Below, one piece after another: positions 10,082 to 59,734 of a stretch of DNA of 64,000 nucleotides (positions are counted from its first letter, which is position 1; each line of letters begins with the position of its first letter). The notes beneath the pieces were generated by a model. It saw only the letters and a list, made by a program, of their open reading frames with translations. It was not told the DNA's origin and did not search any database. This stretch comes from Alphaproteobacteria bacterium (lineage in GTDB: Bacteria; Pseudomonadota; Alphaproteobacteria; Rs-D84). The position numbers and the translations under genes were made by a program. The stretch is taken from contig JBMNPL010000002.1 in NCBI GenBank assembly GCA_050943575.1, forward strand, positions 8,073 through 72,072, in the 5' to 3' direction.

Positions 10082-10855
10082 TTATTTTGTAACATAACAA
10101 TCTAGACCATCAGATTTTGCATTTCTACAAAAACCGTTAGCATCTTGGGAATTTTGGAAACCGATTCTTAACCGATATGCCACCTTTCCATTTGATAATA
10201 CAGCCCTTTGAATTACAAAATCATGACCCGAGAATAAACTTGAATGGGTTGCAAGTAATCTTTTTTTTGATACTTCTGCACCTGAACGTGTTGCATAAGA
10301 ACCAAATTGAACATAGAAATTACTAGTTACAGATGCCTGTGGTTTAACCGATGGTTTTGATACAGGTTTTTCTGCAACAATTTTATCACCGGACGTTGAA
10401 GTTTTAGTAATTGGTCTTGGTTTCGGCGGTTCTATTTTTTGTGTATCTTTAGCCGGTGCTGACGTTGCATCTGGTTTGAACATTACATCTTTTCTTTCTT
10501 CAACCACACGAACTGGGACACCTGCTTCTGATTGGGGTTGTTCCGCAACTGTTTTATTATCAGTATCTGTTTTGATTTCTGATGTTGGTTGATCTGTTAC
10601 AACTTGTTCAGTTGTTGGTTGTTTTGACGGGGTATTTAAATCAATTTCAATAGAACTATTTTTGGCATCATGCATAACGATTCGCACAATAATATATGTA
10701 GCAAGTATAATGACTATTATTGCGGCACCGAATAATAGCCAAGGGCGACGCGGACGACTATAAGTCAGCACACCATCTTCTGGTAAATCTGGCAATTCAA
10801 GTTCATCATCTAAATCTAGTAAATCTTTATTTTCATCAGCTACTAATTCAGCCAT
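10082..10855 (-). CDS. SPOR domain-containing membrane protein (cell-division associated)
   Basis: 257 aa. Acidic N-terminus, one TM, a low-complexity linker, and a C-terminal SPOR-like domain (YVQFGSY...RLRIG...C..L...G..C). Confidence 0.6.
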   Translation of the reverse strand: MAELVADENKDLLDLDDELELPDLPEDGVLTYSRPRRPWLLFGAAIIVIILATYIIVRIVMHDAKNSSIEIDLNTPSKQPTTEQVVTDQPTSEIKTDTDNKTVAEQPQSEAGVPVRVVEERKDVMFKPDATSAPAKDTQKIEPPKPRPITKTSTSGDKIVAEKPVSKPSVKPQASVTSNFYVQFGSYATRSGAEVSKKRLLATHSSLFSGHDFVIQRAVLSNGKVAYRLRIGFQNSQDANGFCRNAKSDGLDCYVTK

Positions 10856-15860: not shown

Positions 15861-16490
15861 ATGGAAAAGCAAGATATCAGAACATTTGGTAGAATTCATG
15901 GAAAGCGGCTATCTGCTCGTCAACAATATTTAATTGATAATTTACTACCAACCCTGATACCTTTATTTAAAGATAATTCAGAAAAAATTCTAGAAATTGG
16001 CTTTGGTGCAGGAGAACATTTATTAAAATTAGCATCAGAAAACCCCGATAAAATTATTATTGGTGCAGAACCTTTTATAAACGGTGTTGCCAGTTTATTA
16101 TCAAAGATTACTGATAACAATAATAATATAAACTCAGAATTTAATAATATAAGAATTTGGCCAGATGATGTTAGAAAATTAATAAATAATAATGATTTTA
16201 AATTTCAACAAATATGGATTTTACATCCTGATCCGTGGCCCAAGGCACGACATGAAAAACGTAGATTATTATCCAGCGCATTTTTAAATCTTTTGTCCGC
16301 ACGCCTTGAATCAAACGGAAAAATTATAATCGGAACAGATCATTATGAATATTATGATTGGATTATAGAACAGTTACAACAAACAAAATTATCTATTATT
16401 GATGATTGTTTGCCGATTATTAAAACTAGATATCAACAAAAAAATAAAGCCGGAACAATTGTTCCAAAGTATTTAATTTTATCGCTTTAA
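15861..16490 (+). CDS. trmB: tRNA (guanine46-N7)-methyltransferase
   Basis: 209 aa. SAM-binding EIGFGAGEH and the HPDPWPKARHEKRRL motif. Confidence 0.8.
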   Translation: MEKQDIRTFGRIHGKRLSARQQYLIDNLLPTLIPLFKDNSEKILEIGFGAGEHLLKLASENPDKIIIGAEPFINGVASLLSKITDNNNNINSEFNNIRIWPDDVRKLINNNDFKFQQIWILHPDPWPKARHEKRRLLSSAFLNLLSARLESNGKIIIGTDHYEYYDWIIEQLQQTKLSIIDDCLPIIKTRYQQKNKAGTIVPKYLILSL

Positions 16491-17689
16491 CGTTTTTTAT
16501 GACTTTTTATTTTATTATAGTTTTCATTAGATTGTTTTATGGTTGTCTTTACTGCAGCAACATCAAATTTTGATTTTTTTTGAATTGTATTTTGACTTTT
16601 ATTAAAATTTTTCGAATTTTCTATTTGTTCCGATTGAATTTTATTAAAAACATCTTTGATATTATAATACACAGATTTATGTTCCGGCATTATTGATTTA
16701 GTTAATTCTAAATTAGTTGGTTTATAAAATTTTTTATTTTGTGGATCCCAATAAATTGGTGATTTTAACCATAATTTAAATGCAGCGGCAACTTTATAAT
16801 TGATAACTTTATCTTCGTTTATCATATATACATTTTGTGCTTCTAAATACCTGCGAAATTCAAATACCCCACCGACTGGTACATTCATAATATCATCAGG
16901 ATCTAAAATACCTGCGGTTAAACAAGCCTCGAACCATCTACGCCAAACCAATCCTTCGGCGCGCTTGCCACCAACACTCAGATAATTCGCCATATTCTGC
17001 CCTATTTCTGCACCTGACTTTCCATCTGACCAAGCTTTGAAAACACTACCTTGATTACCAACTGGATATTTTGTAAAAATTTCTTTTATATCATCACGAG
17101 ATGTTTTGCCTTTATCGCGACGATAAATTTCTCGCAATTTTGCCCATCTTGTATCTCTGGTTTTATCAACCTCTCCCCCAACATCAGGTTCAAACATTTT
17201 TGGACCACCATTATAAACAAACGATGCTAACCCTAAAAATTCACCTGGATCCATTTCCAAATCAAATGCGCAACAATAACAATAAAGAATATAATATGTT
17301 TCAAGTTCTTCAATATGCCAACATGCATTTTTATATGCTTCGTCTATGGACATTTTTGGTGTGTTTTTATCAACTTTTTTGCCACTTTGTAGTATAGTAC
17401 TCCCATACCCGATTGTCCAAATTCCACGCATATCTGGATACGGATTATCTTTAAAACCTTCGGGATTTGCTAGAAAACCGACAAGATATCGTGTCCAAGG
17501 ACGACATTTAATTAAAAATTCTTCATATGTATTTGCAGGTTTAATTTTCAATTTATTTTTTCTGGCTTCTTTTCGTTGTTTTTCTGTTATTTTCTGAACA
17601 GATTTAAAACCGCCATAAAGAGCAATGGATGCGCATAAAACAATAATCCATTTTTTATTTTGAATTAAAATATTTTTCAATTTATCCAT
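16487..17689 (-). CDS. membrane-anchored GH24 (T4/lambda-type) lysozyme family protein with long C-terminal extension
   Basis: 400 aa. N-terminal TM, then the catalytic motif PEGFKDNPYPDMRGIWTIGYGST (EG...Y.D..G.WTIGYG). The ~200-aa Lys/Asn-rich C-terminal tail is of unknown function. Confidence 0.6.
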   Translation of the reverse strand: MDKLKNILIQNKKWIIVLCASIALYGGFKSVQKITEKQRKEARKNKLKIKPANTYEEFLIKCRPWTRYLVGFLANPEGFKDNPYPDMRGIWTIGYGSTILQSGKKVDKNTPKMSIDEAYKNACWHIEELETYYILYCYCCAFDLEMDPGEFLGLASFVYNGGPKMFEPDVGGEVDKTRDTRWAKLREIYRRDKGKTSRDDIKEIFTKYPVGNQGSVFKAWSDGKSGAEIGQNMANYLSVGGKRAEGLVWRRWFEACLTAGILDPDDIMNVPVGGVFEFRRYLEAQNVYMINEDKVINYKVAAAFKLWLKSPIYWDPQNKKFYKPTNLELTKSIMPEHKSVYYNIKDVFNKIQSEQIENSKNFNKSQNTIQKKSKFDVAAVKTTIKQSNENYNKIKSHKKR

Positions 17690-19056: not shown

Positions 19057-19860
19057 TTATAATCTTTTCTGATTTTTTAGGTATAATTGCATATTAATAT
19101 TAATTGTGTTTAATTTATCTTTTAAAGATTTAATAGCATCTTCTTCCGAAGATCCTTCCCCCACAACTATTGGGATATCTAATGTATAATCTTCATCTTT
19201 TTCCCAAAATCTTTTTTCTCTATAAAGCTTAGCTGTAGACTCATACGCAATATATGTTGGTCTAACACTAACAGGTGCTGAAAATTCTTCCTCGTATTCA
19301 TTAGAGCTGCTGTAATAATTAGAACTTTTTTTTGGAAAAACTGAGTCATATCCTCTTGATAAATAAAAATTTCCAAAAAAATCATATAAATTTATCGATT
19401 TACCAACAATTAATCTGCCATTAATATCTTTGTCAAATATTATTTTGTGTGCTGTTTGCACCAATGTAGTTGGTGAACCAATATGATTTTTGATATTAAA
19501 TACAGATAATTTTTCCCCAGAAGGTAGAACTATTAAGGATAAATTAAAACACTTTGTTATAATAGCACCATTATCTTTTGCATTCCAAAGAGGAGATGTG
19601 GATTTAAAAACAATTTGTTTTAAATTCTTACAATTATGTATCCCACGAACTTCGATTTTATTAACATTTTTGGGGATTTCAAGAGTTTTAATTTCATCAA
19701 TATTATAAAAAGCTTCGGTATTTATAACTTGCACTGAAGTCGGTATTTTAAAAGTTCCATCTTCTATGTTATTTTTTCTAACTTTTTTTAAAACTTTATT
19801 ATCTTTAGATAGTATCGGTTTAGTATCTACTATTTTTAAGATCGCATCTTTGAATGACAT
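19057..19860 (-). CDS. BspA-type leucine-rich-repeat protein (putative)
   Basis: Repeated IPxxVxxIxxxAFxxCxxLxxIxxP-like units (IPTSVQVINTEAFYNIDEIKTLEIPKNVNKIEVRGIHNCKNLKQIVF). No signal peptide. Start chosen at MSFKD with RBS AAGGGTGG; the track start at 19890 overlaps the upstream OMP. Confidence 0.4.
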   Translation of the reverse strand: MSFKDAILKIVDTKPILSKDNKVLKKVRKNNIEDGTFKIPTSVQVINTEAFYNIDEIKTLEIPKNVNKIEVRGIHNCKNLKQIVFKSTSPLWNAKDNGAIITKCFNLSLIVLPSGEKLSVFNIKNHIGSPTTLVQTAHKIIFDKDINGRLIVGKSINLYDFFGNFYLSRGYDSVFPKKSSNYYSSSNEYEEEFSAPVSVRPTYIAYESTAKLYREKRFWEKDEDYTLDIPIVVGEGSSEEDAIKSLKDKLNTININMQLYLKNQKRL

Positions 19861-19870
19861 AACCACCCTT

Positions 19871-20581
19871 TTAAAATGATATATTGACACGTGTGCCGAA
19901 TTTCATATTATTTTGTTCAAAATCATATTCACCAAAGCCAACATATTGTGTGCGACCATATTGACGAACTAATTTCGCATTTACAATCGTTGTATCAAAA
20001 ATTGGATTTGTTGATTTTCTAAAATCTGCACCCATACCAATACGCCAATTTGAACTTAATCTGAAATAAATATCTGGCATTATATCAATCCAAGCCATCC
20101 CATTTAATTCATCAAAAATCCAACTTGATTTTAAAGCGCCGGATAATGTAACCCAATCCCAACTGCGACCAATACGAACACCACCAAAATAAATATTTTT
20201 ATCAAATCTGGGATCTGCATCACCAGAAACTTTTATTCCACCAAAAAGATCTGATTTAACTGCACCGTTTGACATACGATACATAGCATCAAAACCAAAA
20301 TATGAAAACCCATCATAATCACGTTCATCATTAAAATCTTGTTGATATTTAACGGTTGTACCTAAAACAAATATATCATTTATTCCATAAGCAGCCTTGA
20401 GCCCGACATCCAAAATATCATCACCAAAAGATAATCCGCCACGCATTGTAAAATCACGCGCTTGTTCAAAATACATCGGATCTTCGGTATCAAATATTGC
20501 GGCACTGGCACTGGAAAACAAAGCTATAAGCCCACAAAAAGCAACCCCTGTTAAAACAATTTTGTTTTTAATACAACTCAT
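19871..20581 (-). CDS. outer-membrane beta-barrel protein (putative)
   Basis: 236 aa. Signal peptide (SASA|AIF), alternating hydrophobic beta-strand pattern, C-terminal Phe. Confidence 0.5.
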   Translation of the reverse strand: MSCIKNKIVLTGVAFCGLIALFSSASAAIFDTEDPMYFEQARDFTMRGGLSFGDDILDVGLKAAYGINDIFVLGTTVKYQQDFNDERDYDGFSYFGFDAMYRMSNGAVKSDLFGGIKVSGDADPRFDKNIYFGGVRIGRSWDWVTLSGALKSSWIFDELNGMAWIDIMPDIYFRLSSNWRIGMGADFRKSTNPIFDTTIVNAKLVRQYGRTQYVGFGEYDFEQNNMKFGTRVNISF

Positions 20582-31499: not shown

Positions 31500-31526
31500 A
31501 AACCGGCAAATGCCGGTTTTTTTATT
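31499..31526. terminator. bidirectional rho-independent terminator between convergent genes
   Basis: Hairpin aaccggc-aaat-gccggtt (31501-31518) followed by T7. The reverse side is T/A-rich. Confidence 0.55.
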
Positions 31527-34341
31527 TAATTACCATTTCTTGACCATAGGATGCGACTTTTCTGCCACCGATATAACAATTTATATCTGTTTGTTTATTA
31601 AAGTCTTCTATGGCTTTTTGACGAGCTTCTTCTAGTGCTTGGGCTTCTTTTTGATTAATAGCATTTCCAGCAATCATTCCACCAGCAACAGCACTTACAA
31701 CACCAGTAGTAATAGCACCGATATGAGCACCTTTGGTATCAAAATTTAATAAATGATTTTTTGGATTTTTTGTTTTTGATGTATAATTAGTATTAATATC
31801 ATTATATGTACTTTGACAAAGTTTTAATGCTTTACTTCCGACTGGATCACAATTAGGTGTTTTGGTATTATCAATATAATCACATTCCTGACAAGGATTT
31901 TGTGTACTATAATTCTTACCTTTTTGTTCTATACATTGATGACACTTGTTATATAAAGTTATTTTATCTGCATTAATATTAGTTGAATATCCTCTAGTTG
32001 CGTTTTGTATCGCATTTCCTGCCATTACACCACCCAGACCACCGATAACCAAACTACCCAATGTTGCACCACCAATTCGTAATGTTTTTTGAAGTCCGGT
32101 TAATTTTTCTGAACAATTATGAGTTGATGGAGTTTTACCATCCTTACAAAATTCTATTTCTTCTGCTATCTTACGTTCTATTTTTTCTAGTTGTTCCGTT
32201 GTTAAACCTAAACATTGCATAGTTGTGCCTTTGGGATAATACCGCACAGAATTTTCATTTTCTTTCAATACTTCTTGTACTTTAGCATTATTAGAACGCA
32301 TTGTTACTTTAACAGCACAAAAGCCATCAAATGGGTTATTAGTTGCTGTAACCTTATTCAATCCTTCATATTCATTATCTAACGATTCTATATCGGAAAG
32401 AGATGCCCAAATATAATCTTTGCTGGTGGAACCCTTGATATTGCTATTTTCACAAGCATTTTTGATATCATTGGCTTCGCGTTCTAATACGGAATTTGCA
32501 CGTTTACCAATATCTGCTAATAATCCATCAAAGATACTTTGTTCTTGTGTCGCACAAATTTTTATCTTTGTTGATATCTTTACTGTCGGATCAATCACAT
32601 TACCCGCATTATCTACTTTATCAAAATAAGTTTCAGACACACGACAAATATTGTCCGAAGTTTCGTTATTTGACGTAGCATCTAACCATGCATTACGAAC
32701 ATTGTTAGATGTTCCCCAAGAGTCAGCACTTGTACCTTTACTATTTCTTGCATATTGAACATCAAAATAATCTATACAATCTGTGAATTTTTTAACCTTT
32801 AACATACATAAATCACGTGCCATTTCTGTATCAAAACCACCAACAAATGAACCTGTCGAAGGTAAACCTTTTGATTTATTAATAAAACCTTTTTCAATAG
32901 TCAAATTATTAGTAGTATTATTGTTGGCGATTCTGCCTATCGCCGCAGAACTAGTAATAAAGCAACGTGAAAAATCATTTCCGCATTCGTCTTCTACACA
33001 CTTTTCAACTTGTGCTTGACAACTGGTGCGCATACCAGCAACTGCTTGTTCATTAAATGCTTTTTGTAAATCTGTATCCAAACCAACAATAGCGCCAATT
33101 GAATCATTTGTCCAAACCGCATCCCAAACATCACCATCTGAACCTGAATCTTTATTACGAAATACATCTTTACAATATTGATTATTTTCAATTAAATTCT
33201 TACATTGCCCTGTAATATCATGCGCGGCTTTATTTTTTATACTTACCGTATTTCCAACTTTAGCCAACCCATAACAACGGGCACGCGACCCTTCACCACA
33301 TGCATTAACTGCACAATCTGTTATAGCATTTTTACATTGCTCTACAGAATTTTTTGCTGCTAATGCCGCCCATTCTTTTATTTTAGATTGTGCCATTTTC
33401 CAACGCGCACCAACACCATTATACATAATATCTTGGTATACTTCCTGAATATTAAAACTATCTGTTAAATCAACTTCTTTGGCAGGTTTACCATTTGTAA
33501 CCATAAAACACCATTCATTAGTACCAATAGTATCACGACATTGTTCTTTGATATAATTTTTAACATTGCTATCATCCCAACCCATATTATAAATCCAAGT
33601 TTCCAACATATCTGGATTTAAACGAAGCGTAGTTTCGCCAGATGTTGCAATATTAACCATTTCAGATGCATCTATATCTGAAAATCCAGTTAAAGATATA
33701 CATTTATGCGGTGCACCTTTACAAGCATTTTGAATACAAGCATCTGCAGCCTTATTACAGGTTTTAACACTATTTGCAGCCGCCCAATTTTTACCATCTT
33801 TTATTGCTAAATCAATTCTACTCTCTGTAGCAACAGCAATATCACCTAATGCCGGTGTAAATGTTCTTTTGGTTAAAACAGATTCACCATCACACATTGT
33901 GCGATTTGCAGCCGCCATATCATCTGATGTTGTTACAGAATTTCCAAACAAAGCCTTGATCGCTTCAGCAGGACATTGAGCCAAAAATTCTTGGCACATA
34001 ATACGAGATTTATTAAATTGTTTTAAGTTATAACAAAGTTCAAAATGTTCACCGCACACGTTATCTTGGCGCAAACATGATTCATATCTATCAATACAAC
34101 GACCTGATGCCAAACGTTCAGGTAATGGATTTGCACATGTTGCCACCAAACCAGCATCCGCAGAAGGCTTGGTATTAATTACAGGTGCTATTTGCATTGT
34201 GTTTGGACGTGCCGTTGGTAATCGGCTTGTCGCGCTGGGACGTGATAAAGTCGCCATACCAATAGCCCTCGCCGGTACAGTGTAAATTCCTGATACCAAA
34301 GGTATCATTAAACTGATAATTATTGCTTTGTTTATTCTCAT
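31522..34341 (-). CDS. large Cys-rich secreted/surface protein with two C-terminal glycine-zipper segments
   Basis: 939 aa from the Met of the signal peptide MRINKAIIISLMIPLVSGIYTVPARA; the track ORF starts 15 codons upstream. Very many paired Cys. Two GxxxG-rich hydrophobic segments (GGATLGSLVIGGLGGVMAGNAI; GAHIGAITTGVVSAVAGGMIAGNAI). No recognisable enzymatic motif. Confidence 0.5.
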   Translation of the reverse strand: MRINKAIIISLMIPLVSGIYTVPARAIGMATLSRPSATSRLPTARPNTMQIAPVINTKPSADAGLVATCANPLPERLASGRCIDRYESCLRQDNVCGEHFELCYNLKQFNKSRIMCQEFLAQCPAEAIKALFGNSVTTSDDMAAANRTMCDGESVLTKRTFTPALGDIAVATESRIDLAIKDGKNWAAANSVKTCNKAADACIQNACKGAPHKCISLTGFSDIDASEMVNIATSGETTLRLNPDMLETWIYNMGWDDSNVKNYIKEQCRDTIGTNEWCFMVTNGKPAKEVDLTDSFNIQEVYQDIMYNGVGARWKMAQSKIKEWAALAAKNSVEQCKNAITDCAVNACGEGSRARCYGLAKVGNTVSIKNKAAHDITGQCKNLIENNQYCKDVFRNKDSGSDGDVWDAVWTNDSIGAIVGLDTDLQKAFNEQAVAGMRTSCQAQVEKCVEDECGNDFSRCFITSSAAIGRIANNNTTNNLTIEKGFINKSKGLPSTGSFVGGFDTEMARDLCMLKVKKFTDCIDYFDVQYARNSKGTSADSWGTSNNVRNAWLDATSNNETSDNICRVSETYFDKVDNAGNVIDPTVKISTKIKICATQEQSIFDGLLADIGKRANSVLEREANDIKNACENSNIKGSTSKDYIWASLSDIESLDNEYEGLNKVTATNNPFDGFCAVKVTMRSNNAKVQEVLKENENSVRYYPKGTTMQCLGLTTEQLEKIERKIAEEIEFCKDGKTPSTHNCSEKLTGLQKTLRIGGATLGSLVIGGLGGVMAGNAIQNATRGYSTNINADKITLYNKCHQCIEQKGKNYSTQNPCQECDYIDNTKTPNCDPVGSKALKLCQSTYNDINTNYTSKTKNPKNHLLNFDTKGAHIGAITTGVVSAVAGGMIAGNAINQKEAQALEEARQKAIEDFNKQTDINCYIGGRKVASYGQEMVIK

Positions 34342-34416
34342 AACTCCCACCATTCTTGTCAATATTCTATCATAAAAATATAACAATATAAAGAGAAAAA
34401 AGTAAAAAATAGATTT

Positions 34417-36189
34417 TCACTTTTTCTCTAAAAGTTCTTGAACAGCGGCTGCAAAATCTGGGGCTTTTTTTAGAAAACTGCCAGCAACCAGAAAATCTGC
34501 ACCTGCGACCCAACATTTTTTCGCGGTTTCCGGATTTATTCCGCCGTCAACACTTATTTTAAACTTTAATCCATGCTTGCGTCTAGTATTATTTAAAGAA
34601 GCAATTTTTGATATTGATTCTTCTATAAAAACTTGCCCCGATTTTCCTGGAATAACAGACATTATCATAACCTCATCAATATTTCGTAATATCGGAGCAA
34701 TAACTTCTAAATCAGTATTTGGATGTAAAGCAACACCCCCACGTTTACCCGCTGCACGTATTTTATTTAATGCACGTCTTACACCATTTGTACCAGATGA
34801 AACAATAATAGTATCTGCCCCACCCGCAATAGCCTCGGTCGCCCAATTAACTGGATTTTCCGTCATTAAATGAACATGTAAATGTGATTTAGTCCGAGAA
34901 CGAATAAAACGAAGTTCATCAATACCACTGGCAATATTATCAACATAAAAGCCATCCATTATATCAACATGAATCATATCTATGCCCGCAGATTCAAACA
35001 TAGTATAAGTATCTAAATTTCGCATATCCCAAACCAAAGTGCTGGGCATAATTGGAATAAATTTTTTCCGGCGCGAAAAAATCCTCCATCTTAAAGGCGC
35101 GGTTAAAAATCCAAAAAATTTATCCCATTTTTTTCTACGTTCCAAGTATGCTTTAACCCGTGATGATTCAGAATTCCAAATAAATTCTGCAAATGAATTA
35201 ACAATTCCAAATGCGCCCAAATTTTCAACCGGTATATTAAATTCTTTTTCTAAAACATCATCCAGTCCCATAATTCCAGACCCGCCGCCGCTTATATAAA
35301 TTTTAATCGGATTATACTTTTCAATTACTGGAATAAGTATTTCTTGAACTTGACTTAAAATCTCAGAAAAAATACTTTCTGTAATTTCATTCAAATCAAA
35401 TCTGGTTATATCATATTTTGCATCCGCCGGAGTAAACCTGTCCATATCTGTTTGTATTAAACTCATGCTGGAAACTTTTAACCTTTCTGCTTCGGATATC
35501 GGTAAATTAAAAGCCTGTGCAACTGATTTGGTTATATCAGCCCCGCCAATTGGTATTTTATTAATTAATATCGGACCACGTGCTGTCCATAAAGATACAC
35601 TTGTAAATTCTGCACCAAAATCTATGAATATTGAATTTTCTGATGCCAATCGTGCAGTTGACCCCAATAAAAACATAGGATCAAAAAAACCACCAGATCT
35701 AAGATGTGCCGAATGTAATACAGATTTTATATAAGATAAATCTTGAGAATTATATGCTATCACATTAAATACAGAATGTAATGCCCTATCAGTATGTCCA
35801 AGTGGATTTGAAATGTTATGAAAACCACCTAAATCATAACGTAAAGGAATTATATGAAGAACTGAGTTTTCACCTTGGAAAAAATCAAAAATTTGCTCTA
35901 AAATATCGTTTTGTGTAATTTTATGTTCTGCAGACCATATACTTTTTTTTGAAACAATTTTTGATTCAATCTGACCAAAATTCCCCGTAACAAATGCTTT
36001 ATCAAATCTTGTGCCAATTTGTTCTTCAAGACTATCAACCGCTGTTTTTATAGCATATGCTAAATCACTAGATTCTGTATATGCACTTGCAGATGTTTTA
36101 ATCCGTCCAAAACAAACCCTTGTGGCGACAGCATGAACTCCGCTGGAGCCTATATCTAAACATAAAAAAGAACCCTCGGTTAAGTTCAT
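34417..36189 (-). CDS. ftsA: in-frame fusion of cell-division protein FtsA (aa 1-380) and ribulose-phosphate 3-epimerase Rpe (aa 381-590)
   Basis: N-terminus aligns to FtsA (actin fold, CLDIGSSGVHAV...; IYISGGGSGIMGLDD) and ends in a basic amphipathic tail (WDKFFGFLTAPLRWRIFSRRKKF). It continues without a stop into a complete Rpe (MPSTL...HVDIMDGFYVDN...SVDGGIN...VAGSF). Confidence 0.65.
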   Translation of the reverse strand: MNLTEGSFLCLDIGSSGVHAVATRVCFGRIKTSASAYTESSDLAYAIKTAVDSLEEQIGTRFDKAFVTGNFGQIESKIVSKKSIWSAEHKITQNDILEQIFDFFQGENSVLHIIPLRYDLGGFHNISNPLGHTDRALHSVFNVIAYNSQDLSYIKSVLHSAHLRSGGFFDPMFLLGSTARLASENSIFIDFGAEFTSVSLWTARGPILINKIPIGGADITKSVAQAFNLPISEAERLKVSSMSLIQTDMDRFTPADAKYDITRFDLNEITESIFSEILSQVQEILIPVIEKYNPIKIYISGGGSGIMGLDDVLEKEFNIPVENLGAFGIVNSFAEFIWNSESSRVKAYLERRKKWDKFFGFLTAPLRWRIFSRRKKFIPIMPSTLVWDMRNLDTYTMFESAGIDMIHVDIMDGFYVDNIASGIDELRFIRSRTKSHLHVHLMTENPVNWATEAIAGGADTIIVSSGTNGVRRALNKIRAAGKRGGVALHPNTDLEVIAPILRNIDEVMIMSVIPGKSGQVFIEESISKIASLNNTRRKHGLKFKISVDGGINPETAKKCWVAGADFLVAGSFLKKAPDFAAAVQELLEKK

Positions 36190-36200
36190 GTTTATTAAAT

Positions 36201-36884
36201 TTATAATTTTACCAATGGACGTGATAAATCACGCATATCTAATAATTTTATTTGCCTATCTAAAATCATATTTTGCTTATTCATATTATCTATTTTTGTT
36301 ATCGCTTGTTCAAAATTTTCTTCGGGCAGCATAATCTTCATACCGTTTAATAAAAAAATATCCCAACGTCTGTCTTCTATAAACTCCATTCTATCAATAG
36401 AATAAAAAAGATTAGGAGTGTGTTTTACTATTTTTATCGTTTTTGATAAATCTTGTGGAACTTGCCCAGAAAAAACTAGTGTATTTTCCGGTCTTGTGGA
36501 TGATGGTTTATTAATTGGTGCACCTGTATCATCCAAAGGATAATAATTTTCACCATCAGTCCAACTAGCAACAATAACACGCATATCTGCACGAATTTTA
36601 ATTTCGCCATTTGGTAAACGACGAACAGCAACATTTGCAATATCTGGATCTGATGCAACACGAGCTAAAACATCATTTAAATCAATATGTTTATCTGTAT
36701 GATCTATTCCCAATCTTGTAATTAAATCTGATGCTTTACCATTATCAGAATAAACCGAAACTTTTTTTACATCTGATAATATACCACCAATCCCCATTGA
36801 TACCATGCTAATACGCACTGCTATATAAATCGCAAGCAAAATCGCAATGCAAAACATTAACCAAAATAAAAACTTATTCTTCAT
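36201..36884 (-). CDS. ftsQ: cell division protein FtsQ
   Basis: 227 aa with an N-terminal TM and POTRA-like domain. Sits immediately upstream of ftsA. Confidence 0.65.
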   Translation of the reverse strand: MKNKFLFWLMFCIAILLAIYIAVRISMVSMGIGGILSDVKKVSVYSDNGKASDLITRLGIDHTDKHIDLNDVLARVASDPDIANVAVRRLPNGEIKIRADMRVIVASWTDGENYYPLDDTGAPINKPSSTRPENTLVFSGQVPQDLSKTIKIVKHTPNLFYSIDRMEFIEDRRWDIFLLNGMKIMLPEENFEQAITKIDNMNKQNMILDRQIKLLDMRDLSRPLVKL

Positions 36885-36944: not shown

Positions 36945-37334
36945 TTAACTTGCTCGTAATAAATAACCACGACGCATCATACATTTACGATATGCGCCAA
37001 TTGAACGAGCGCTGGAATTTGGGGGAACAGACATTAAAGCACGTTGTCCAATATCCGAATTTTCATTTGATTGAAAAGTTACCCACAAACCATCCCAATC
37101 GGGCATCAAACTAGATTGATTTGGGCTGATTAATTTTGCCAATCTGGAACGTGGCATATGTGAAGGCTTTTTTATACCAAGACAACTTTTATGATCACGA
37201 ACAAATTGTTCTGTTGTAACCATATCGTTTTCCCAATTTAAAATTGTCGCATCATCAATAGAACCACGATTAGCAGATGAACACCCTGTTAAAAACACAA
37301 TTGATAAAATAATAAGAATAAAACTTTTCTTCAT
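36945..37334 (-). CDS. hypothetical lipoprotein
   Basis: Start chosen at MKKSFILIILSIVFLTGC (lipobox LTGC). 129 aa. Confidence 0.45.
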   Translation of the reverse strand: MKKSFILIILSIVFLTGCSSANRGSIDDATILNWENDMVTTEQFVRDHKSCLGIKKPSHMPRSRLAKLISPNQSSLMPDWDGLWVTFQSNENSDIGQRALMSVPPNSSARSIGAYRKCMMRRGYLLRAS

Positions 37335-37420
37335 ATTTTTAATTATAACTGAAAAATTAATTTTTTTACAATATAAATTTCCTAAATACATTTAATTAAT
37401 AATAAATCATCCTTTTACAC

Positions 37421-37450
37421 TTGCGAAAACTGGCTTTTTAATTCTATAAT
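37421..37450 (+). promoter_or_regulatory. sigma70-like promoter (TTGCGA, 18 nt spacer, TATAAT) for the 37474 operon
   Basis: Near-consensus -35 and a perfect -10 hexamer. Strong RBS AGGAAGGAG follows at 37458-37466. Confidence 0.4.
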
Positions 37451-37473
37451 GTAAGTACAGGAAGGAGCAAAAA

Positions 37474-37782
37474 ATGACCGCTGAAGAAAGATATATTCGT
37501 ATAGCCGGTTTTTACGAGGCTTTAAAAACATTGTCCGCTGCAATACGTACTCAAAAAGGTGGTATAGCAGCCGAAAATTATACAGGACGATTTTTTGAGG
37601 CAGATGTTCTGGAAATGCTAAATGCATATGGTGAAAAATTAAAGCCTAGTGATGCTAAACTAAAAGCCCTGATAAAAAAATATCAATCCGAATTTCAAGG
37701 TGTTAAAGATTTAGTCACACCCAGTAATAAACCTGTGCATGAAATGACTCTTGAAGAATTTCAACGTGTTATGAATATATAA
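37474..37782 (+). CDS. hypothetical small cytoplasmic helical protein, first gene of the secretin-like operon
   Basis: 102 aa with a strong RBS. No TM or signal peptide. Confidence 0.45.
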   Translation: MTAEERYIRIAGFYEALKTLSAAIRTQKGGIAAENYTGRFFEADVLEMLNAYGEKLKPSDAKLKALIKKYQSEFQGVKDLVTPSNKPVHEMTLEEFQRVMNI

Positions 37783-37792
37783 AGGACATAAA

Positions 37793-39109
37793 ATGAAAAA
37801 AATATATATACTCTTTGTGTTTTGTTCATTGTTTTTTATTAGCGCATGCCAATTTAGACAAGACACAGAGCAATTTGATGAAATACAAGTTATTGAAAAT
37901 ATAGTAATAGATGAATATTCTGTCCCTATTTTCCCACGCAAAGCCGCATTAACAACTGATACTGCACGTAGATTTGCTATAGATTTACCAAAACGTTGTA
38001 AAGTTGATTGGGATAATCATAATTTACTATCTGTTTTACCATCAAATCCTGTAGAAATTGTGCGATTAAATAAAGGTGATGATTTACCTAATTTTGTAGT
38101 AGAAGATTTTTCTTTTAAGAAAAAAAGCGTCCCTGAGGTTTTAGAAAAATTACTAATTGGTACTAAAATCAAAATCGTTGCTAGCGAAAAATTACCCGAT
38201 TTAATTAGCGGGGAAATAAAATCTGGAACACTAGAAGATGCTGTTGAGCTTATTTGTAAACTAGGTAAAACCTATTATACGTATGACGATGATACAAAAG
38301 AAATTCGTATTTCTAGTCGTGGAAAATGGCTGATGAAAATGCCAAAGGATGAATATGTAATTATGGCTTTAATTGACGCAATGCATGGTTATAACTTGCG
38401 TAATTTAATGACCAACTGGAAAGATAAAACTTTGGTGTTTGAAGGTAATTATCAAACAGAAAAAAAAGTTCGAGATATAATTGCTGATATTGGAAATAAA
38501 AAATTCTTGATTGCTTGGGATATGGATATTTATCGTGTATATCCACGTACTGACAATCCAATTGTTTGGATGAATATGCTACCTGCGTTTGGTGAAAAAA
38601 ATATCAGAATGTCAATCCCTGGGGTAGTCGGAAGATTGTTGGTTGTATCACCTGAAATAAATACAAAAACATTGCAATCGTTTTTAGCACAACAATCAAA
38701 TGTAGTGTTAATTTCCCAAGGAACATTTGTAATACCAAATGGCTGGCAAAGTAGATTTGATATTGGACAATGTTCTCGTGAAGAAAGATTAGAAACAGAT
38801 TTAATAATTGGTGCAACTGGTAAATATGGTAAATATGCAGATATGACTAAACTAGATGCAAAAATTGCATTACGTACAACAAATGGAGAATTGGCTAGTT
38901 TTAACGCACCAACAACTCTTGGGGATAACTATGTTATTATTGGAATACCCACACATAGTTTTGTAACTGGACCTGAAACATTAATAAACCCATTTGCAGA
39001 ATTGGTGATATTTATGAGCCCACGTATTATTTCAATCGTAGAACCAGATAATGCAGATGACGCCACAGAACTTTCCGGTGATAAACTGCGTGAGTATTTA
39101 GATGAATAA
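37793..39109 (+). CDS. lipoprotein with secretin-like N-domain and secretin-like C-terminus (putative liposecretin)
   Basis: 438 aa. Lipobox FISAC. A segment (VPEVLEKLLIGTKIKIVASEKLPDLISGEIKSGTLEDAVELICKLGKTYYTYDDDTKEIRI) matches the Secretin_N/STN pattern. The C-terminus (NYVIIGIPTHSFVTGPETLINPFAELVIFMSPRII) resembles the secretin ...ELLIFITPRII ending. RBS AAGGA. Confidence 0.35.
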   Translation: MKKIYILFVFCSLFFISACQFRQDTEQFDEIQVIENIVIDEYSVPIFPRKAALTTDTARRFAIDLPKRCKVDWDNHNLLSVLPSNPVEIVRLNKGDDLPNFVVEDFSFKKKSVPEVLEKLLIGTKIKIVASEKLPDLISGEIKSGTLEDAVELICKLGKTYYTYDDDTKEIRISSRGKWLMKMPKDEYVIMALIDAMHGYNLRNLMTNWKDKTLVFEGNYQTEKKVRDIIADIGNKKFLIAWDMDIYRVYPRTDNPIVWMNMLPAFGEKNIRMSIPGVVGRLLVVSPEINTKTLQSFLAQQSNVVLISQGTFVIPNGWQSRFDIGQCSREERLETDLIIGATGKYGKYADMTKLDAKIALRTTNGELASFNAPTTLGDNYVIIGIPTHSFVTGPETLINPFAELVIFMSPRIISIVEPDNADDATELSGDKLREYLDE

Positions 39110-39345: not shown

Positions 39346-40599
39346 ATGTTTAGTCGTTTGGAAAAGAAAATTGCATTTAGATATTTACGCGCACGCGGAC
39401 GTGGATTCGGTAGTGTTATTTCATGGGTATCATTACTGGGTATTGCACTGGGGGTTGCAACACTTATTGTTGTTATGTCTGTTATGGGTGGTTTTCATGA
39501 TACCCTGCTTTCACGTATTGTTGGTATGAATGGACATGTTGTTGTTTATCACCAAGATGGTGCAATTAAAGATTTTGATTACTTAATTGAAAAAATAAAA
39601 TCAAATAAAATTGTTATAGAAAATACTAACAATATTATCCCTGTTCTAGAAGGACAAGCAATGGTATCTGCAAATGGTAAAAATTCTGGAACAATGGTTC
39701 GTGGTATTAGAATGAACGATTTAGAACGCAAATTTCAAAAAGGTACAAAAATTTATGGAACACCCCTTTCAAAAATTCAAAGTGGACAATTAATAATGGG
39801 TGCCCCATTGGCAAGAATGTTGCGCCTTACTATAAATAATAATGCAACACTTATAAGTGCAAATGGTGGAACAGCAACAGCATTTGGAACTATGCCACGA
39901 ATACAATCATATCCTGTCGCAACAACATTTTTCGTAGGTATGTATGAATATGATTCTGGTTATATCTTTATGCCCTTGGAAACCGCGCAAAAGTTTTTAA
40001 ATTCCCCTGATGGTGTTTCGCATATAGATTTATTCTTAAAAAATTCAGAAAAAACAGATGTTGTTCGCAATGCTTTATCAGATAGTCTGCCAAATGGATT
40101 TGTAGTTCGTGATTGGCGTGATTTAAATCGTAGTTTTGTCGGTGCATTACAAGTTGAATCAAATGTAATGTTTTTAATTTTATTATTAATAGTAATCGTT
40201 GCAGCATTTAATATTGTATCTAGCTTGGTTATGCTGGTTAAAGATAAATCACGAGATATTGCAGTATTGCGAACATTTGGTGTTTCACGAAATAGTATGA
40301 TGAAAATATTTATTTTATGCGGTACAAGTATTGGAATTATTGGTGCTGTAATTGGAACAATTGTGGGTGTCTTGGTTGCAAAATATATTGAACCAATACG
40401 ACAGTTTTTTCAATGGATAACTGGTCGTGATTTGTTCCCATCAGAACTATACTTTCTTTCTGAATTACCATCTAGAATAGAATTTTGGAATGTTTTTGGA
40501 ATTGCTTTTATCGCAATCGCATTAGCATTTTTGGCAACTCTTTACCCAGCATGGAAAGCAGCTAAAACAGATCCAGTAGAAGTTTTAAGGAATGAATAA
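39346..40599 (+). CDS. lolC: lipoprotein-releasing system permease LolC/LolE (FtsX/MacB-type)
   Basis: 417 aa. N-terminal region similar to LolC (FRYLRARGRGFGSVISWVSLLGIALGV). A periplasmic domain is followed by the FtsX 3-TM bundle. Confidence 0.75.
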   Translation: MFSRLEKKIAFRYLRARGRGFGSVISWVSLLGIALGVATLIVVMSVMGGFHDTLLSRIVGMNGHVVVYHQDGAIKDFDYLIEKIKSNKIVIENTNNIIPVLEGQAMVSANGKNSGTMVRGIRMNDLERKFQKGTKIYGTPLSKIQSGQLIMGAPLARMLRLTINNNATLISANGGTATAFGTMPRIQSYPVATTFFVGMYEYDSGYIFMPLETAQKFLNSPDGVSHIDLFLKNSEKTDVVRNALSDSLPNGFVVRDWRDLNRSFVGALQVESNVMFLILLLIVIVAAFNIVSSLVMLVKDKSRDIAVLRTFGVSRNSMMKIFILCGTSIGIIGAVIGTIVGVLVAKYIEPIRQFFQWITGRDLFPSELYFLSELPSRIEFWNVFGIAFIAIALAFLATLYPAWKAAKTDPVEVLRNE

Positions 40600-41314
40600 A
40601 ATGGCAGCACCAATATTAAAATCTTTATCTTCTGTAAAAAAACGAGCAACTGTTATGTCAGTTGTTGGTATTAAAAAATCTTTTATGGAAGGTGGACAAC
40701 CATTAAATATTTTACGTGGCGGAGGATTTGAATTAATGCGTGGTGAAATTGTCGCTCTGGTCGGTCCATCAGGATGTGGTAAATCTACCCTGATACAATG
40801 TGTTGGATTGCTGGATCAACCAAGTGGGGGGCAAATTACTATTACCGGTATTCCAGTTCATAAAATGAACGAAGATCAACGCACATTAATCCGCAGAACT
40901 AAACTCGGTTTCGTTTATCAACGTCATAATTTATTGGAAGATTTTACAGCTCTTGAAAATGTGATGATGCCTATGCTGGCAAATAATATGAATGAAGATG
41001 ATGCGCGTATTCGTGCAAAAAAATTACTAAAAGCTACAAATATTTTACACCGCGCAAATCATAGACCTGCAGAAATGTCCGGTGGCGAACAACAACGTAC
41101 TGCTGTGGCACGTGCGCTTGCTAATAAACCTGAGATTGTTCTGGCAGACGAACCAACAGGATCACTTGATCCAACACACGCATCAAATGTTTTTGACTTG
41201 CTATTATCTTTAGCAAAAAAAACACGTATGTCTATGTTATTCGTAACACATGATATGAATCTAGCAAAACGTGCCGATAGAATAATTACTATAAAAAATG
41301 GAATTGTTGGATGA
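40592..41314 (+). CDS. lolD: lipoprotein-releasing system ATP-binding protein LolD
   Basis: 240 aa with Walker A GPSGCGKST, ABC signature SGGEQQR and Walker B LADEPTGSLD. Confidence 0.8.
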   Translation: MNKMAAPILKSLSSVKKRATVMSVVGIKKSFMEGGQPLNILRGGGFELMRGEIVALVGPSGCGKSTLIQCVGLLDQPSGGQITITGIPVHKMNEDQRTLIRRTKLGFVYQRHNLLEDFTALENVMMPMLANNMNEDDARIRAKKLLKATNILHRANHRPAEMSGGEQQRTAVARALANKPEIVLADEPTGSLDPTHASNVFDLLLSLAKKTRMSMLFVTHDMNLAKRADRIITIKNGIVG

Positions 41315-57489: not shown

Positions 57490-57517
57490 AAAAGCCGGTT
57501 AAGACCAGCTTTTTTAA
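57490..57517. terminator. rho-independent terminator between convergent typA and kdsA
   Basis: 7-bp stem with one mismatch (agccggt/accagct) plus T6. Confidence 0.4.
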
Positions 57518-58350
57518 ATAATTATTAAATTAGATTTAGCAATTTCATCTATTTGTTTCCAGATTTTCAATTCTTTTTCCATATCTGAAAGTTTAATCAT
57601 ATTTGGTCCATCACATGGTGCAGAATCTGGATTATCATGAACCTCTGTAAATACTGCCGCTACACCAATTGCTAATGCGGCACGTGCAATAACAGGGGCA
57701 AGACGTCTATCACCACCACTGGTACAACCACTACTTGCTGGCTGTTGAATTCCGTGTGTTGCATCAATCACGACAGGTACACCCAACGATGACATCCATG
57801 GAATACTGCGCATATCAACAACATAATTATTATAACCAAAACTAGTACCACGTTCACATAATAAAATATTTTCATTCCCAGAATCATACATTTTACCTAA
57901 TGTAGATTTCATATCATGTGGTGCAGACCATTGTGGTTTTTTTATATTTATCGGTTTTCCTGTTTTAGCCGCTGACACTAATAAATCTGTCTGTCGTGCT
58001 AAAAAAGCCGGTATTTGTAAAATATCAACATGTGGTGCAACAATCTCAGCTTGATCAGGTAAATGAATATCTGTAATACACGCACATCCAATTTTTTCAC
58101 GAATTTCATCAAATACTTTCATTGAATAATCTAAACCTGCCCCGCGCTTTGATGAAATTGATGTTCTGTTTGCTTTATCAAAACTAGTTTTAAATACAAA
58201 TGGTATTCCTAATTTATTAGTTATTTTTGTTAAATTTTCAGCCATAAACATTGCATGATCTCGTGATTCCAGTGCACATGGTCCAGCAATTAAAACAAAT
58301 GGTAAATCATTTCCAAAAACAACTTTATCTGAAATTTTTATGTGTTTCAT
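57514..58350 (-). CDS. kdsA: 3-deoxy-8-phosphooctulonate synthase
   Basis: Start at MKHIKISDKVVFGNDLPFVLIAGPC with an ATGA overlap to the kdsB stop. KDO8P synthase motifs (GPCALES, KTSFDKANRTS). Confidence 0.8.
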   Translation of the reverse strand: MKHIKISDKVVFGNDLPFVLIAGPCALESRDHAMFMAENLTKITNKLGIPFVFKTSFDKANRTSISSKRGAGLDYSMKVFDEIREKIGCACITDIHLPDQAEIVAPHVDILQIPAFLARQTDLLVSAAKTGKPINIKKPQWSAPHDMKSTLGKMYDSGNENILLCERGTSFGYNNYVVDMRSIPWMSSLGVPVVIDATHGIQQPASSGCTSGGDRRLAPVIARAALAIGVAAVFTEVHDNPDSAPCDGPNMIKLSDMEKELKIWKQIDEIAKSNLIII

Positions 58351-59102
58351 TTTATATATTTCCTTATTTCTTCCAAATCCTCTGCAGTATTTACATCTGC
58401 TGGTGCACATTTATCTATTCGAGTATCATCCAAAATAACTGCGAAAACACTCATACCATTTTCCAAAAATCGTAATTGTTCTAAACTTTCTGTTTTTTCC
58501 AATTCGCCAACTGGTAATTCAATAAATTTGCGTAAAGATTTTAAATTATACGCATACATTCCAATATGCCAAAAAGCTTTGTCAGTACACCCTTCTTTAC
58601 GATTGAACGGAATCGGACTGCGTGAAAAATACAAACAACGTCCGCTTGATTGAACTATTGCCACCTTTACAACAGAGGAATTCATAATTAATTTTTCATC
58701 ATCTATTGGTTGAACTACCGTTACTAAGTCTGCATTATTTTTTTCTAATATTTCTGCCAAATGTTGACTTATTTTTGGATTTACATTTACATCATCACCT
58801 TGAAAATTTATAACAAAGTCGTATTTATCACCATTTGGATCAATTATATCTAATGCTTGAGCAATACGATCTGTACCAGATGGACAATTTGGATCTGTCA
58901 TAATTGCTTGTGCACCAAAACTAATTGCATGTTGAAAATATTCATCATTATCAATAGCAATATAAACATCATTTGGATTAAATTCTGTAATAACTGATTC
59001 ATAAACCCGCTGCATTAATGATTTTCCATTAATATCAACCAAATGCTTTTTTGCCAATCTTTCAGATCCTGCACGACAAGGAATTATTACACATGTTTTC
59101 AT
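58347..59102 (-). CDS. kdsB: 3-deoxy-manno-octulosonate cytidylyltransferase
   Basis: 251 aa. N-terminal IIPCRAGSERLAKK motif. Confidence 0.8.
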   Translation of the reverse strand: MKTCVIIPCRAGSERLAKKHLVDINGKSLMQRVYESVITEFNPNDVYIAIDNDEYFQHAISFGAQAIMTDPNCPSGTDRIAQALDIIDPNGDKYDFVINFQGDDVNVNPKISQHLAEILEKNNADLVTVVQPIDDEKLIMNSSVVKVAIVQSSGRCLYFSRSPIPFNRKEGCTDKAFWHIGMYAYNLKSLRKFIELPVGELEKTESLEQLRFLENGMSVFAVILDDTRIDKCAPADVNTAEDLEEIRKYIK

Positions 59103-59734
59103 AATCCATTTTCCTTTTTTATATATTTTATCAAATCAGTATAATTATAAAATTCAGGAACTTTTAAATCTTTAGGTGTATCAGTAGTAAATTCACTACG
59201 AAATCGTATTGGTTTGACCTCAGCGCGAATCGCCGCGCGCAAATTATAAGGCCGATCATCAACTAGTATAGTTTCTGAAGGATTCCAATTATTTTCCACC
59301 ATATATTTTAACATATTTTCTTCTTTGGTATCACCATGCGGAGTAATTTTTATATCAATTGGTAAATCCCCAATAAGTTTTTTAAGCAAATTAATCTTAC
59401 GCGTACCTGCTCCTGTTGCTGACATTGTAGTTTGATTAATTTTCATATTGTGTAATTGCAAAATCGTATCGCGTGCACCATAATATAAAGGACGATCGTC
59501 AAAAAATTCGGAAGTTATAAAATCATTATTCATAGCATCGCCATAAAGCGGATGGATAGATAATTCTAAACCAGCATATTCAGAATTAGTCGGGAGAGCT
59601 TTTGCAAGATCTTTATATTTAAGATCTACAAACATTTCACGCCAATTTTTATGTTGTGTCAAAAATTTATAATACGCATGATTTAAATTTGCAAGAACAC
59701 CATCTACATCCCAAAATATGTTTTTTATTTTCAT
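59099..59734 (-). CDS. HAD-superfamily hydrolase, 5'(3')-deoxyribonucleotidase-like
   Basis: 211 aa. HAD motif I FWDVDGVLANL. Co-operonic with kdsB and kdsA (4-nt overlap). Confidence 0.5.
   Translation of the reverse strand: MKIKNIFWDVDGVLANLNHAYYKFLTQHKNWREMFVDLKYKDLAKALPTNSEYAGLELSIHPLYGDAMNNDFITSEFFDDRPLYYGARDTILQLHNMKINQTTMSATGAGTRKINLLKKLIGDLPIDIKITPHGDTKEENMLKYMVENNWNPSETILVDDRPYNLRAAIRAEVKPIRFRSEFTTDTPKDLKVPEFYNYTDLIKYIKKENGL

Follow-up and report, generated by a model that had tools for sequence, protein, structure and literature searches.

The minus strand of the 64,000-nucleotide stretch of alphaproteobacterial DNA analysed here (hereafter the window; G+C 32%) carries, at 34417..36189, one uninterrupted open reading frame (ORF) that begins with ATG, encodes 590 amino acids (aa) and closes with TGA, with no in-frame stop between, according to both the ORF listing and the sequence itself. 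Its N-terminal part resembles the cell-division protein FtsA and its C-terminal part the enzyme ribulose-phosphate 3-epimerase (Rpe). A prior reading of this DNA from its letters (the sequence-only reading) had pointed out that ftsA runs into rpe without a stop, which is what we find, and had offered three explanations: a true FtsA-Rpe fusion protein, loss of the ftsA stop with re-initiation at the methionine of Rpe, and a sequencing error in a homopolymer. The parts of the ORF and the gene in front of it are as follows, each with the evidence that defines it:

34417..36189, minus strand: the whole ftsA-rpe fusion ORF, 590 aa plus the TGA stop (ORF listing, sequence, full-length homologues)
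35170..36189, minus strand: FtsA module, aa 1-340, predicted to fold like actin, the 1C/SHS2 insert lying at about aa 74-160 (Pfam, NCBIfam, Foldseek, profile searches)
35059..35169, minus strand: linker, aa 341-377 (37 aa), predicted basic amphipathic helix with a polybasic stretch behind it (physical properties, ratio of nonsynonymous to synonymous substitution rates (dN/dS), structure model)
34420..35058, minus strand: Rpe module, aa 378-590, predicted complete (beta/alpha)8 barrel (PF00834, NF004076, alignment to 2FLI, Foldseek)
35047..35049, minus strand: codon of M381, the supposed internal start (codon survey, Shine-Dalgarno scan, structure model)
36201..36884, minus strand: ftsQ, the upstream gene, ending 11 nucleotides before the fusion (FtsQ_DivIB_C, E 1.5e-10)
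Junction-spanning peptide of this strain, given as an example: FIPIMPSTLVWDMR

An AlphaFold2 model of the protein, computed with an alignment of 120 sequences, consists of two confident domains joined by a helical linker (mean predicted local distance difference test score 91.4; predicted template modelling score (pTM) 0.61). Within the first domain Pfam recognises the FtsA domain PF14450 at aa 188-322 (50.6 bits; cut-off 31.8), and SHS2_FTSA scores just below its threshold at aa 86-144 (24 against 25.4 bits). In a Foldseek comparison with the PDB the top 18 matches are all FtsA structures (from S. aureus, T. maritima, Vibrio and E. coli), with a target-normalised template modelling (TM) score of about 0.7 at 16-20% identity. 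The model, the Foldseek matches and the profile searches agree on an actin/Hsp70-type fold in which the 1C (SHS2) subdomain replaces 1B, the arrangement expected of an FtsA. Because one of our alignments (A2) included three canonical FtsAs, the strong FtsA score obtained with it is inflated; the search of the PDB was repeated with a profile built from fusion proteins only (A3), and this profile aligned with FtsA along the entire fold (profile positions 9-339, E 3e-18) and with PilM (E 1e-11) and MreB (E 3e-10) in the C-terminal half only. Across an alignment of 120 homologues, which underlies all the figures on residue conservation and linker properties given here, D12, G14, G301 and G302 are invariant and D190, G192 and G303 reach at least 90% conservation, so that the phosphate-1 DxG, phosphate-2 DxG and adenosine GGG classes of FtsA nucleotide motif are all covered. 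Judged by its sequence, the segment aa 1-340 is a divergent yet recognisable FtsA.

Canonical FtsA has its amphipathic membrane helix at the extreme C-terminus (PMC4252000), whereas here the corresponding helix is internal and the Rpe barrel follows it. The sequence-only reading had extended FtsA, with a basic amphipathic tail, over aa 1-380; the basic amphipathic segment is indeed present, but the FtsA fold stops at about aa 340 and aa 341-377 are better described as a separate linker. In the AlphaFold2 model this linker has helices at 342-362 and 364-370 as assigned by DSSP, and the polybasic aa 367-374, between helix and barrel, are the only low-confidence segment of the model. Among the homologues the region equivalent to aa 340-381 retains a length of 39-45 aa, a net charge of +7 to +15 and a hydrophobic moment of about 0.7, while sequence identity over aa 353-376 is merely 27%. 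Between close relatives dN/dS is 0.09-0.29 for the linker, 0.08-0.18 for the FtsA part and 0.05-0.15 for the Rpe part; by this measure the linker is under purifying selection. Given the low dN/dS, and that length, charge and amphipathicity are kept while the sequence drifts, the linker appears to be translated and constrained by its physical properties. This is the pattern to expect if the helix binds the membrane in the way of the FtsA tail, and aa 341-377 retain the character of that membrane-targeting tail, namely an aromatic and basic amphipathic helix with a polybasic patch, in an internal instead of a C-terminal position.

The second domain matches the Pfam family Ribul_P_3_epim (PF00834) at aa 380-572 with E 1.7e-46 (158.6 bits, where the cut-off is 21.1), and the match takes in positions 2-196 of the 198 in the profile. 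It also exceeds the cut-off of the NCBIfam rpe subfamily NF004076 (192 against 165 bits) and stays below that of the rpe equivalog TIGR01163 (174.2 against 212.6 bits). Residues 4-214 of the S. pyogenes Rpe structure 2FLI align to the module at E 8e-41, and Foldseek superposes the two with a TM score of 0.92, a root-mean-square deviation of 1.5 A and 38% identity. The metal-binding and catalytic set is retained across the homologues, with H407, H440 and D548 invariant and D409 at least 90% conserved; H407/D409, H440 and D548 align with the HxD, H and D of 2FLI. These features argue that aa 378-590 form a complete Rpe triosephosphate-isomerase (TIM) barrel with an intact His/Asp/His/Asp set, and epimerase activity is predicted. 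The sequence-only reading had likewise seen a complete Rpe, starting at its own methionine; the barrel is complete and the codon of M381 does lie at 35047-35049, but homology begins earlier, at I378, where 'IPIMPS' aligns to 'LKIAPS' (residues 4-9) of 2FLI. Since the nucleotide-binding and catalytic residues are kept, both modules look functional in most members of the family.

When 5.8 billion protein clusters were searched, more than 120 of 579-602 aa matched the protein over 98-100% of its length, with identities of 46-100%. They stem from independent NCBI, JGI, ENA and Logan assemblies; PF00834 is present in all of them and PF14450 as well in nearly all. A protein identical to that of the window was assembled independently from Logan run SRR31066179. 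A genome scan with one genome per species returned 368 related stretches, of which the best 80 are the basis of every count out of 80 below: all 80 of these species-level genomes carry the ORF colinear and at full length, uninterrupted by a stop where the two parts meet, so that the comparison with the ftsA 3' end of sister genomes, proposed in the sequence-only reading, speaks for the fusion. The records of the 80 are titled as metagenome-assembled genomes (MAGs) of Candidatus Enterousia, Alphaproteobacteria or Rickettsiales and come from ruminant, horse, human and termite guts. In an exhaustive HMMER search that used only the FtsA part as query, the nearest relatives recovered were proteins of 542-623 aa, whose identity over that part falls as low as 26-30%, and canonical FtsAs of 400-420 aa appeared only at E ~1e-18. 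By alignment, distant relatives down to about 28% identity share both the linker and the Rpe domain; the two of these that are named are proteins of Alphaproteobacteria or Rickettsiales MAGs annotated as 'ribulose-phosphate 3-epimerase'.

On this evidence we think it probable that the ORF encodes a genuine and ancient FtsA-Rpe fusion, made as one polypeptide of about 65 kDa and characteristic of the reduced-genome gut Alphaproteobacteria of the order Rs-D84 (Candidatus Enterousia and its relatives). Of the three explanations offered beforehand, it is the first, the true fusion, that the more than 120 independent clusters and the 80 colinear genomes bear out. Candidatus Enterousia is a member of Rs-D84, an order with genomes smaller than 1 Mb and a coding density of about 90% (PMC12306168). 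That account of the Rs-D84 genomes makes no mention of FtsZ, FtsA or division, and full-text literature searches turned up no paper on a fusion of FtsA with an epimerase, nor any on FtsZ in Rs-D84. The fusion is real, widespread within one order and undescribed in the literature we found, its sequences being already in the databases under the name of Rpe.

Certain shorter proteins, including P0121 (430 aa) and P0122 (487 aa), were considered as unfused relatives and rejected, as their ends look truncated or frameshifted; they do not constitute evidence of split genes. MAG records at the loci L002, L003, L004, L008, L011 and L019 carry the fusion (49-75% identity) under the title 'uncultured Muribaculaceae bacterium'. 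Among the records so titled is OZ246409.1 (716,531 bp, chromosome-level), and their source taxonomy looks mislabelled.

ftsQ lies directly upstream of the fusion at all 80 loci, and the absence of ftsZ behind ftsQ-ftsA, already remarked for the window, extends to the relatives: no FtsZ was found within 10 kb of the fusion in the window or at any of the 80 loci. In the window as a whole FtsZ was detected neither by the tubulin signature nor by phmmer, the latter with approximate E. coli and B. subtilis FtsZ sequences as queries, and an extension of the contig by about 15 kb, made through the proteins at the window ends, contained no FtsZ either. Presumably ftsZ has moved away from ftsA in this lineage and lies elsewhere in the genome.

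If the fusion is a single protein, a mechanism can be outlined. The FtsA module would still work in the divisome, other components of which the window also encodes (FtsQ, FtsK and an FtsN-like protein with a SPOR domain). The linker helix would lie on the inner leaflet of the membrane, and the Rpe barrel would consequently hang at the membrane a few residues behind the helix, where it could interconvert ribulose-5-phosphate and xylulose-5-phosphate. Rpe enzymes of solved structure (2FLI, 1RPX, 1TQJ, 3OVP) are dimers or hexamers; a fused barrel of this kind would therefore bundle several FtsA chains together with their weak membrane helices, which might raise the avidity for the membrane and preset the oligomeric state of FtsA. 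Ribulose-5-phosphate is, moreover, a precursor of the 3-deoxy-D-manno-octulosonic acid (Kdo) of lipopolysaccharide (LPS), in that KdsA needs arabinose-5-phosphate, which is made from ribulose-5-phosphate. Rs-D84 genomes keep the non-oxidative pentose-phosphate genes except transaldolase, and only this non-oxidative branch is described for them (PMC12306168); if the oxidative branch is indeed absent, ribulose-5-phosphate must come by way of Rpe or Rpi. That Rpe is tied to the machinery of division and of the envelope may then have a reason beyond chance, the supply of Kdo.

Several points weigh against this account of the fusion. The NCBIfam ftsA equivalog TIGR01174 scores 85.5 bits, well under its cut-off of 175.85. 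A single 65-kDa product is what the reading frame predicts, and oligomerisation through Rpe and a role in Kdo supply are inferred. Canonical FtsA requires its helix at the extreme C-terminus, and membrane binding by the internal helix is here putative. At a pTM of 0.61 the AlphaFold2 model gives no confident packing of the FtsA domain against the Rpe domain, and any cooperation between the two is hypothetical. FtsZ was not found in 1.64 Mb of sequence (the window, the 80 loci and contigs L081-L087), no search of the databases for FtsZ having been made, so that tethering of FtsZ by the fusion is an assumption. Finally, the window holds a second in-frame fusion of neighbouring genes, YbeY-Lnt, that is likewise kept in a relative.

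The last of these points leads to the alternative that survives best, to which we give a considerable but less than even chance: a neutral fusion by genome streamlining, in which the stop of ftsA and the spacer were lost once rpe sat behind ftsA, and the two modules went on doing separate jobs. It assigns the protein the same identity as the genuine-fusion reading does and differs from it only on why the fusion exists. The small size and dense coding of Rs-D84 genomes, the lack of confident contact between the domains in the model and the YbeY-Lnt fusion are all in keeping with it. YbeY-Lnt (5519..7492, minus strand), which the sequence-only reading had correctly counted as a second in-frame fusion, is a single ORF of 657 aa with YbeY at aa 33-153, LNT_N at aa 180-340 and CN_hydrolase at aa 415-610, and it overlaps ftsK (7489..9717) by 4 nucleotides; in the metagenome contigs, to which the survey of its breadth was restricted, there is one clear relative, from a JGI metagenome (L084, 3877-5808), 72% identical and an uninterrupted 644 aa. 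Like FtsA-Rpe it joins functionally unrelated neighbours in frame in a reduced genome, with different families involved. Against mere streamlining stand the facts that FtsA-Rpe is never split in the 80 genomes examined, survives divergence to about 28% identity and preserves the length, charge and amphipathicity of its linker. It is also at odds with the P0134 lineage, which has lost the catalytic residues of Rpe and the ATP motifs of FtsA and has kept a colinear protein of 589 aa, a combination that is hard to understand if each half is kept only for its own enzymatic job. Should the fusion be merely a by-product of neutral streamlining, it would still be a clean and unusually stable example of one.

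The same lineage bears on the function of the barrel. The P0134 cluster counts 14 members on at least 10 contigs; 10 of these members are full-length (589 aa), on contigs that reach 198 kb. P0134 is colinear with the protein of the window and 32% identical to it. Its FtsA part lacks D12, D190 and the GGG motif, and its Rpe part lacks H407, D409 and D548 along with the P-S of strand beta-1. A similar loss of residues is seen in P0131, there in the Rpe part only; among the 120 homologues and the relatives compared, P0134 is the only lineage in which the FtsA motifs are wholly lost. Both keep a colinear protein of about 575-589 aa, seen in many assemblies made independently, and may represent a catalytically dead scaffold version of the fusion. 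The retention of the architecture in P0134 after the loss of catalysis suggests a structural role for the Rpe domain. One can accordingly envisage, as a rather unlikely extension of the genuine-fusion reading, that the Rpe barrel is a structural part of the divisome in Rs-D84, an oligomerising or metabolite-sensing module that sets the assembly state of FtsA and is retained even without catalysis. If this were true, cell division would be hard-wired, in nature, to the metabolism of pentose phosphates or LPS precursors.

Two further alternatives concern what is made from the ORF. In the first, which we hold to be quite unlikely, the ftsA stop was lost and ribosomes re-initiate at M381, giving free Rpe beside or instead of the fusion. 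An in-frame ATG (35047-35049) does stand at the border of the region homologous to Rpe, and a survey of codon 381 in 81 sequences found ATG in 45, TTG in 13, TTA in 17, CTG in 5 and GCG in 1; ATG or TTG is thus present in 58 of the 81. Yet TTA and GCG, which are never initiators, account for 18, and at least 18 species consequently have no possible initiation at this position. M381 itself lies within the predicted strand beta-1 (aa 380-383 in the AlphaFold2 model), and a product starting there would be without P379 and I380, the first residues of the strand, which are nearly invariant across the homologues and align to beta-1 of 2FLI. Nor is there a Shine-Dalgarno-like motif before M381, whereas such a motif precedes 20 of the 49 window genes (background 5%); the test is weak in that the start of the fusion itself has none. 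A scan for promoter- and terminator-like sites found none setting off the Rpe part, but was uninformative in this AT-rich DNA, with 14 sites against 14.4 expected from shuffling. Re-initiation after a lost stop, as suggested beforehand, is accordingly disfavoured by the variable codon, the missing motif and the position inside beta-1, and as a general mode it is unlikely.

In the second, the ORF would encode a polyprotein that is cut after translation in the polybasic stretch at about aa 367-377, releasing an FtsA whose helix is truly C-terminal together with free Rpe. That the canonical membrane helix of FtsA is C-terminal fits this idea, as does the low confidence of the model at aa 367-374 alone. 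Neither a protease nor a cleavage motif was found, the sequence of the stretch is variable, and no precedent is known for the processing of FtsA; the chance of such a cut is slim.

A different doubt is whether the N-terminal module is a divisome FtsA at all, or some other actin-like protein, of the PilM or EutJ kind, that has come to lie behind ftsQ. In addition to the score below the ftsA equivalog cut-off and the lack of ftsZ nearby, a search of the PDB with the single sequence gave nearly equal values for FtsA (1e-9) and PilM (1.4e-8). The profile of fusion proteins separates the two clearly, matching FtsA across the whole fold and PilM in one half; taken with the 18 structural matches, the constant presence of ftsQ upstream and the FtsA-like basic amphipathic tail, this makes a non-FtsA identity very unlikely. 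That the Rs-D84 lineage divides without FtsZ is a reading to which we give hardly any credence. A sequencing or assembly artefact, in which a stop or frameshift was missed at a homopolymer near 35040-35130, where A-rich and T-rich runs do occur, can be set aside as having virtually no probability, because frame and length are conserved across independent assemblies, the identical Logan protein included, and the linker is under purifying selection.

Seen as a genuine fusion, the protein combines traits of two known families with departures from both. With canonical FtsA of E. coli, T. maritima and S. aureus (7Q6D, 1E4G, 3WT0) it shares the predicted actin-like fold with 1C and the motifs for phosphate 1, phosphate 2 and adenosine; in both, a basic amphipathic helix comes after the core, and the gene follows ftsQ directly. 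It differs from them in its low identity to the solved FtsAs (16-20%), its score below the TIGR01174 cut-off, a core about 40 residues shorter, a helix followed by a 213-aa enzyme domain and the lack of ftsZ downstream. With the stand-alone Rpe enzymes of S. pyogenes (2FLI), potato (1RPX) and Synechocystis (1TQJ) it has in common a complete TIM barrel with conserved catalytic and metal residues and phosphate-binding loops; unlike them it has no N-terminus of its own, beta-1 continuing from the linker, scores below the TIGR01163 cut-off and in one sub-lineage is without the catalytic residues. A looser comparison is with UgtP of B. subtilis, OpgH of E. coli and GdhZ/KidO of Caulobacter, which are separate metabolic enzymes whose reversible binding to FtsZ responds to a metabolite. 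As in those cases, a central-carbon or envelope-precursor enzyme would be physically tied to the early divisome; in contrast to them Rpe is covalently fused to FtsA, and a regulatory effect would be hypothetical here. Engineered FtsAs in which a MinD helix or a MalF transmembrane segment replaces the tail reportedly tolerate such a different C-terminal attachment to the membrane. Those are laboratory constructs, whereas the present architecture is natural, found in at least 80 species-level genomes of Rs-D84, and places a globular oligomeric enzyme after the helix.

The divisome has in FtsA its main tether to the membrane and its activation switch; the oligomeric state and C-terminal helix of FtsA are central to current models (PMC11323482, PMC5832921, PMC4252000). 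An FtsA with an internal helix and an oligomeric enzyme attached would be a ready-made experiment on the geometry and valency of FtsA and on the wiring of metabolism to division. In public annotation the fusion proteins are called only "ribulose-phosphate 3-epimerase"; surveys may in consequence score Rs-D84 as having no ftsA, and metabolic reconstructions may miss a putative tethering of the enzyme to the membrane and the divisome.

Besides FtsK and YbeY-Lnt, the window encodes LptF/G, a SPOR-domain protein and the enzymes KdsA and KdsB. The SPOR-domain protein (10082..10855, minus strand; 257 aa, the domain being C-terminal) resembles FtsN of the Caulobacter type only weakly, at 35.7 bits where the cut-off is 300, and is a candidate FtsN-like divisome protein. 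The kds cluster (57514..58410, 58347..59102 and 59099..59734, minus strand) comprises overlapping genes for KdsA (383 bits; the equivalog cut-off is 242) and KdsB (230 bits; the cut-off is 193), behind which lies a HAD hydrolase, possibly a phosphatase of the KdsC kind. Judging by these genes, the synthesis of Kdo and LPS appears to be kept in a very reduced genome, where it would depend on ribulose-5-phosphate.

Directly downstream of the fusion lies the Cys-rich gene that had been noticed beforehand, an ORF of 954 aa (31522..34386, minus strand) whose product has a hydrophobic N-terminal segment and no Pfam match; homologues at 47-66% identity occupy the same place only in the 8 closest relatives, and elsewhere the downstream gene is a different one. 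Upstream of ftsQ, a block at 36945..39109 and 39346..41314, partly in divergent transcription, recurs in about 62 of the 80 genomes and consists of a 148-aa lipoprotein, LolCE/LolD and two unknown proteins of 102 and 438 aa without Pfam match, the latter an uncharacterised protein conserved at 61-85% identity. A 400-aa protein with a phage-lysozyme domain (16487..17689, minus strand) and a 277-aa protein with BspA-type leucine-rich repeats (19057..19890, minus strand) may be cell-wall factors or factors for interaction with a host or partner, in a genome thought to be partner-dependent.

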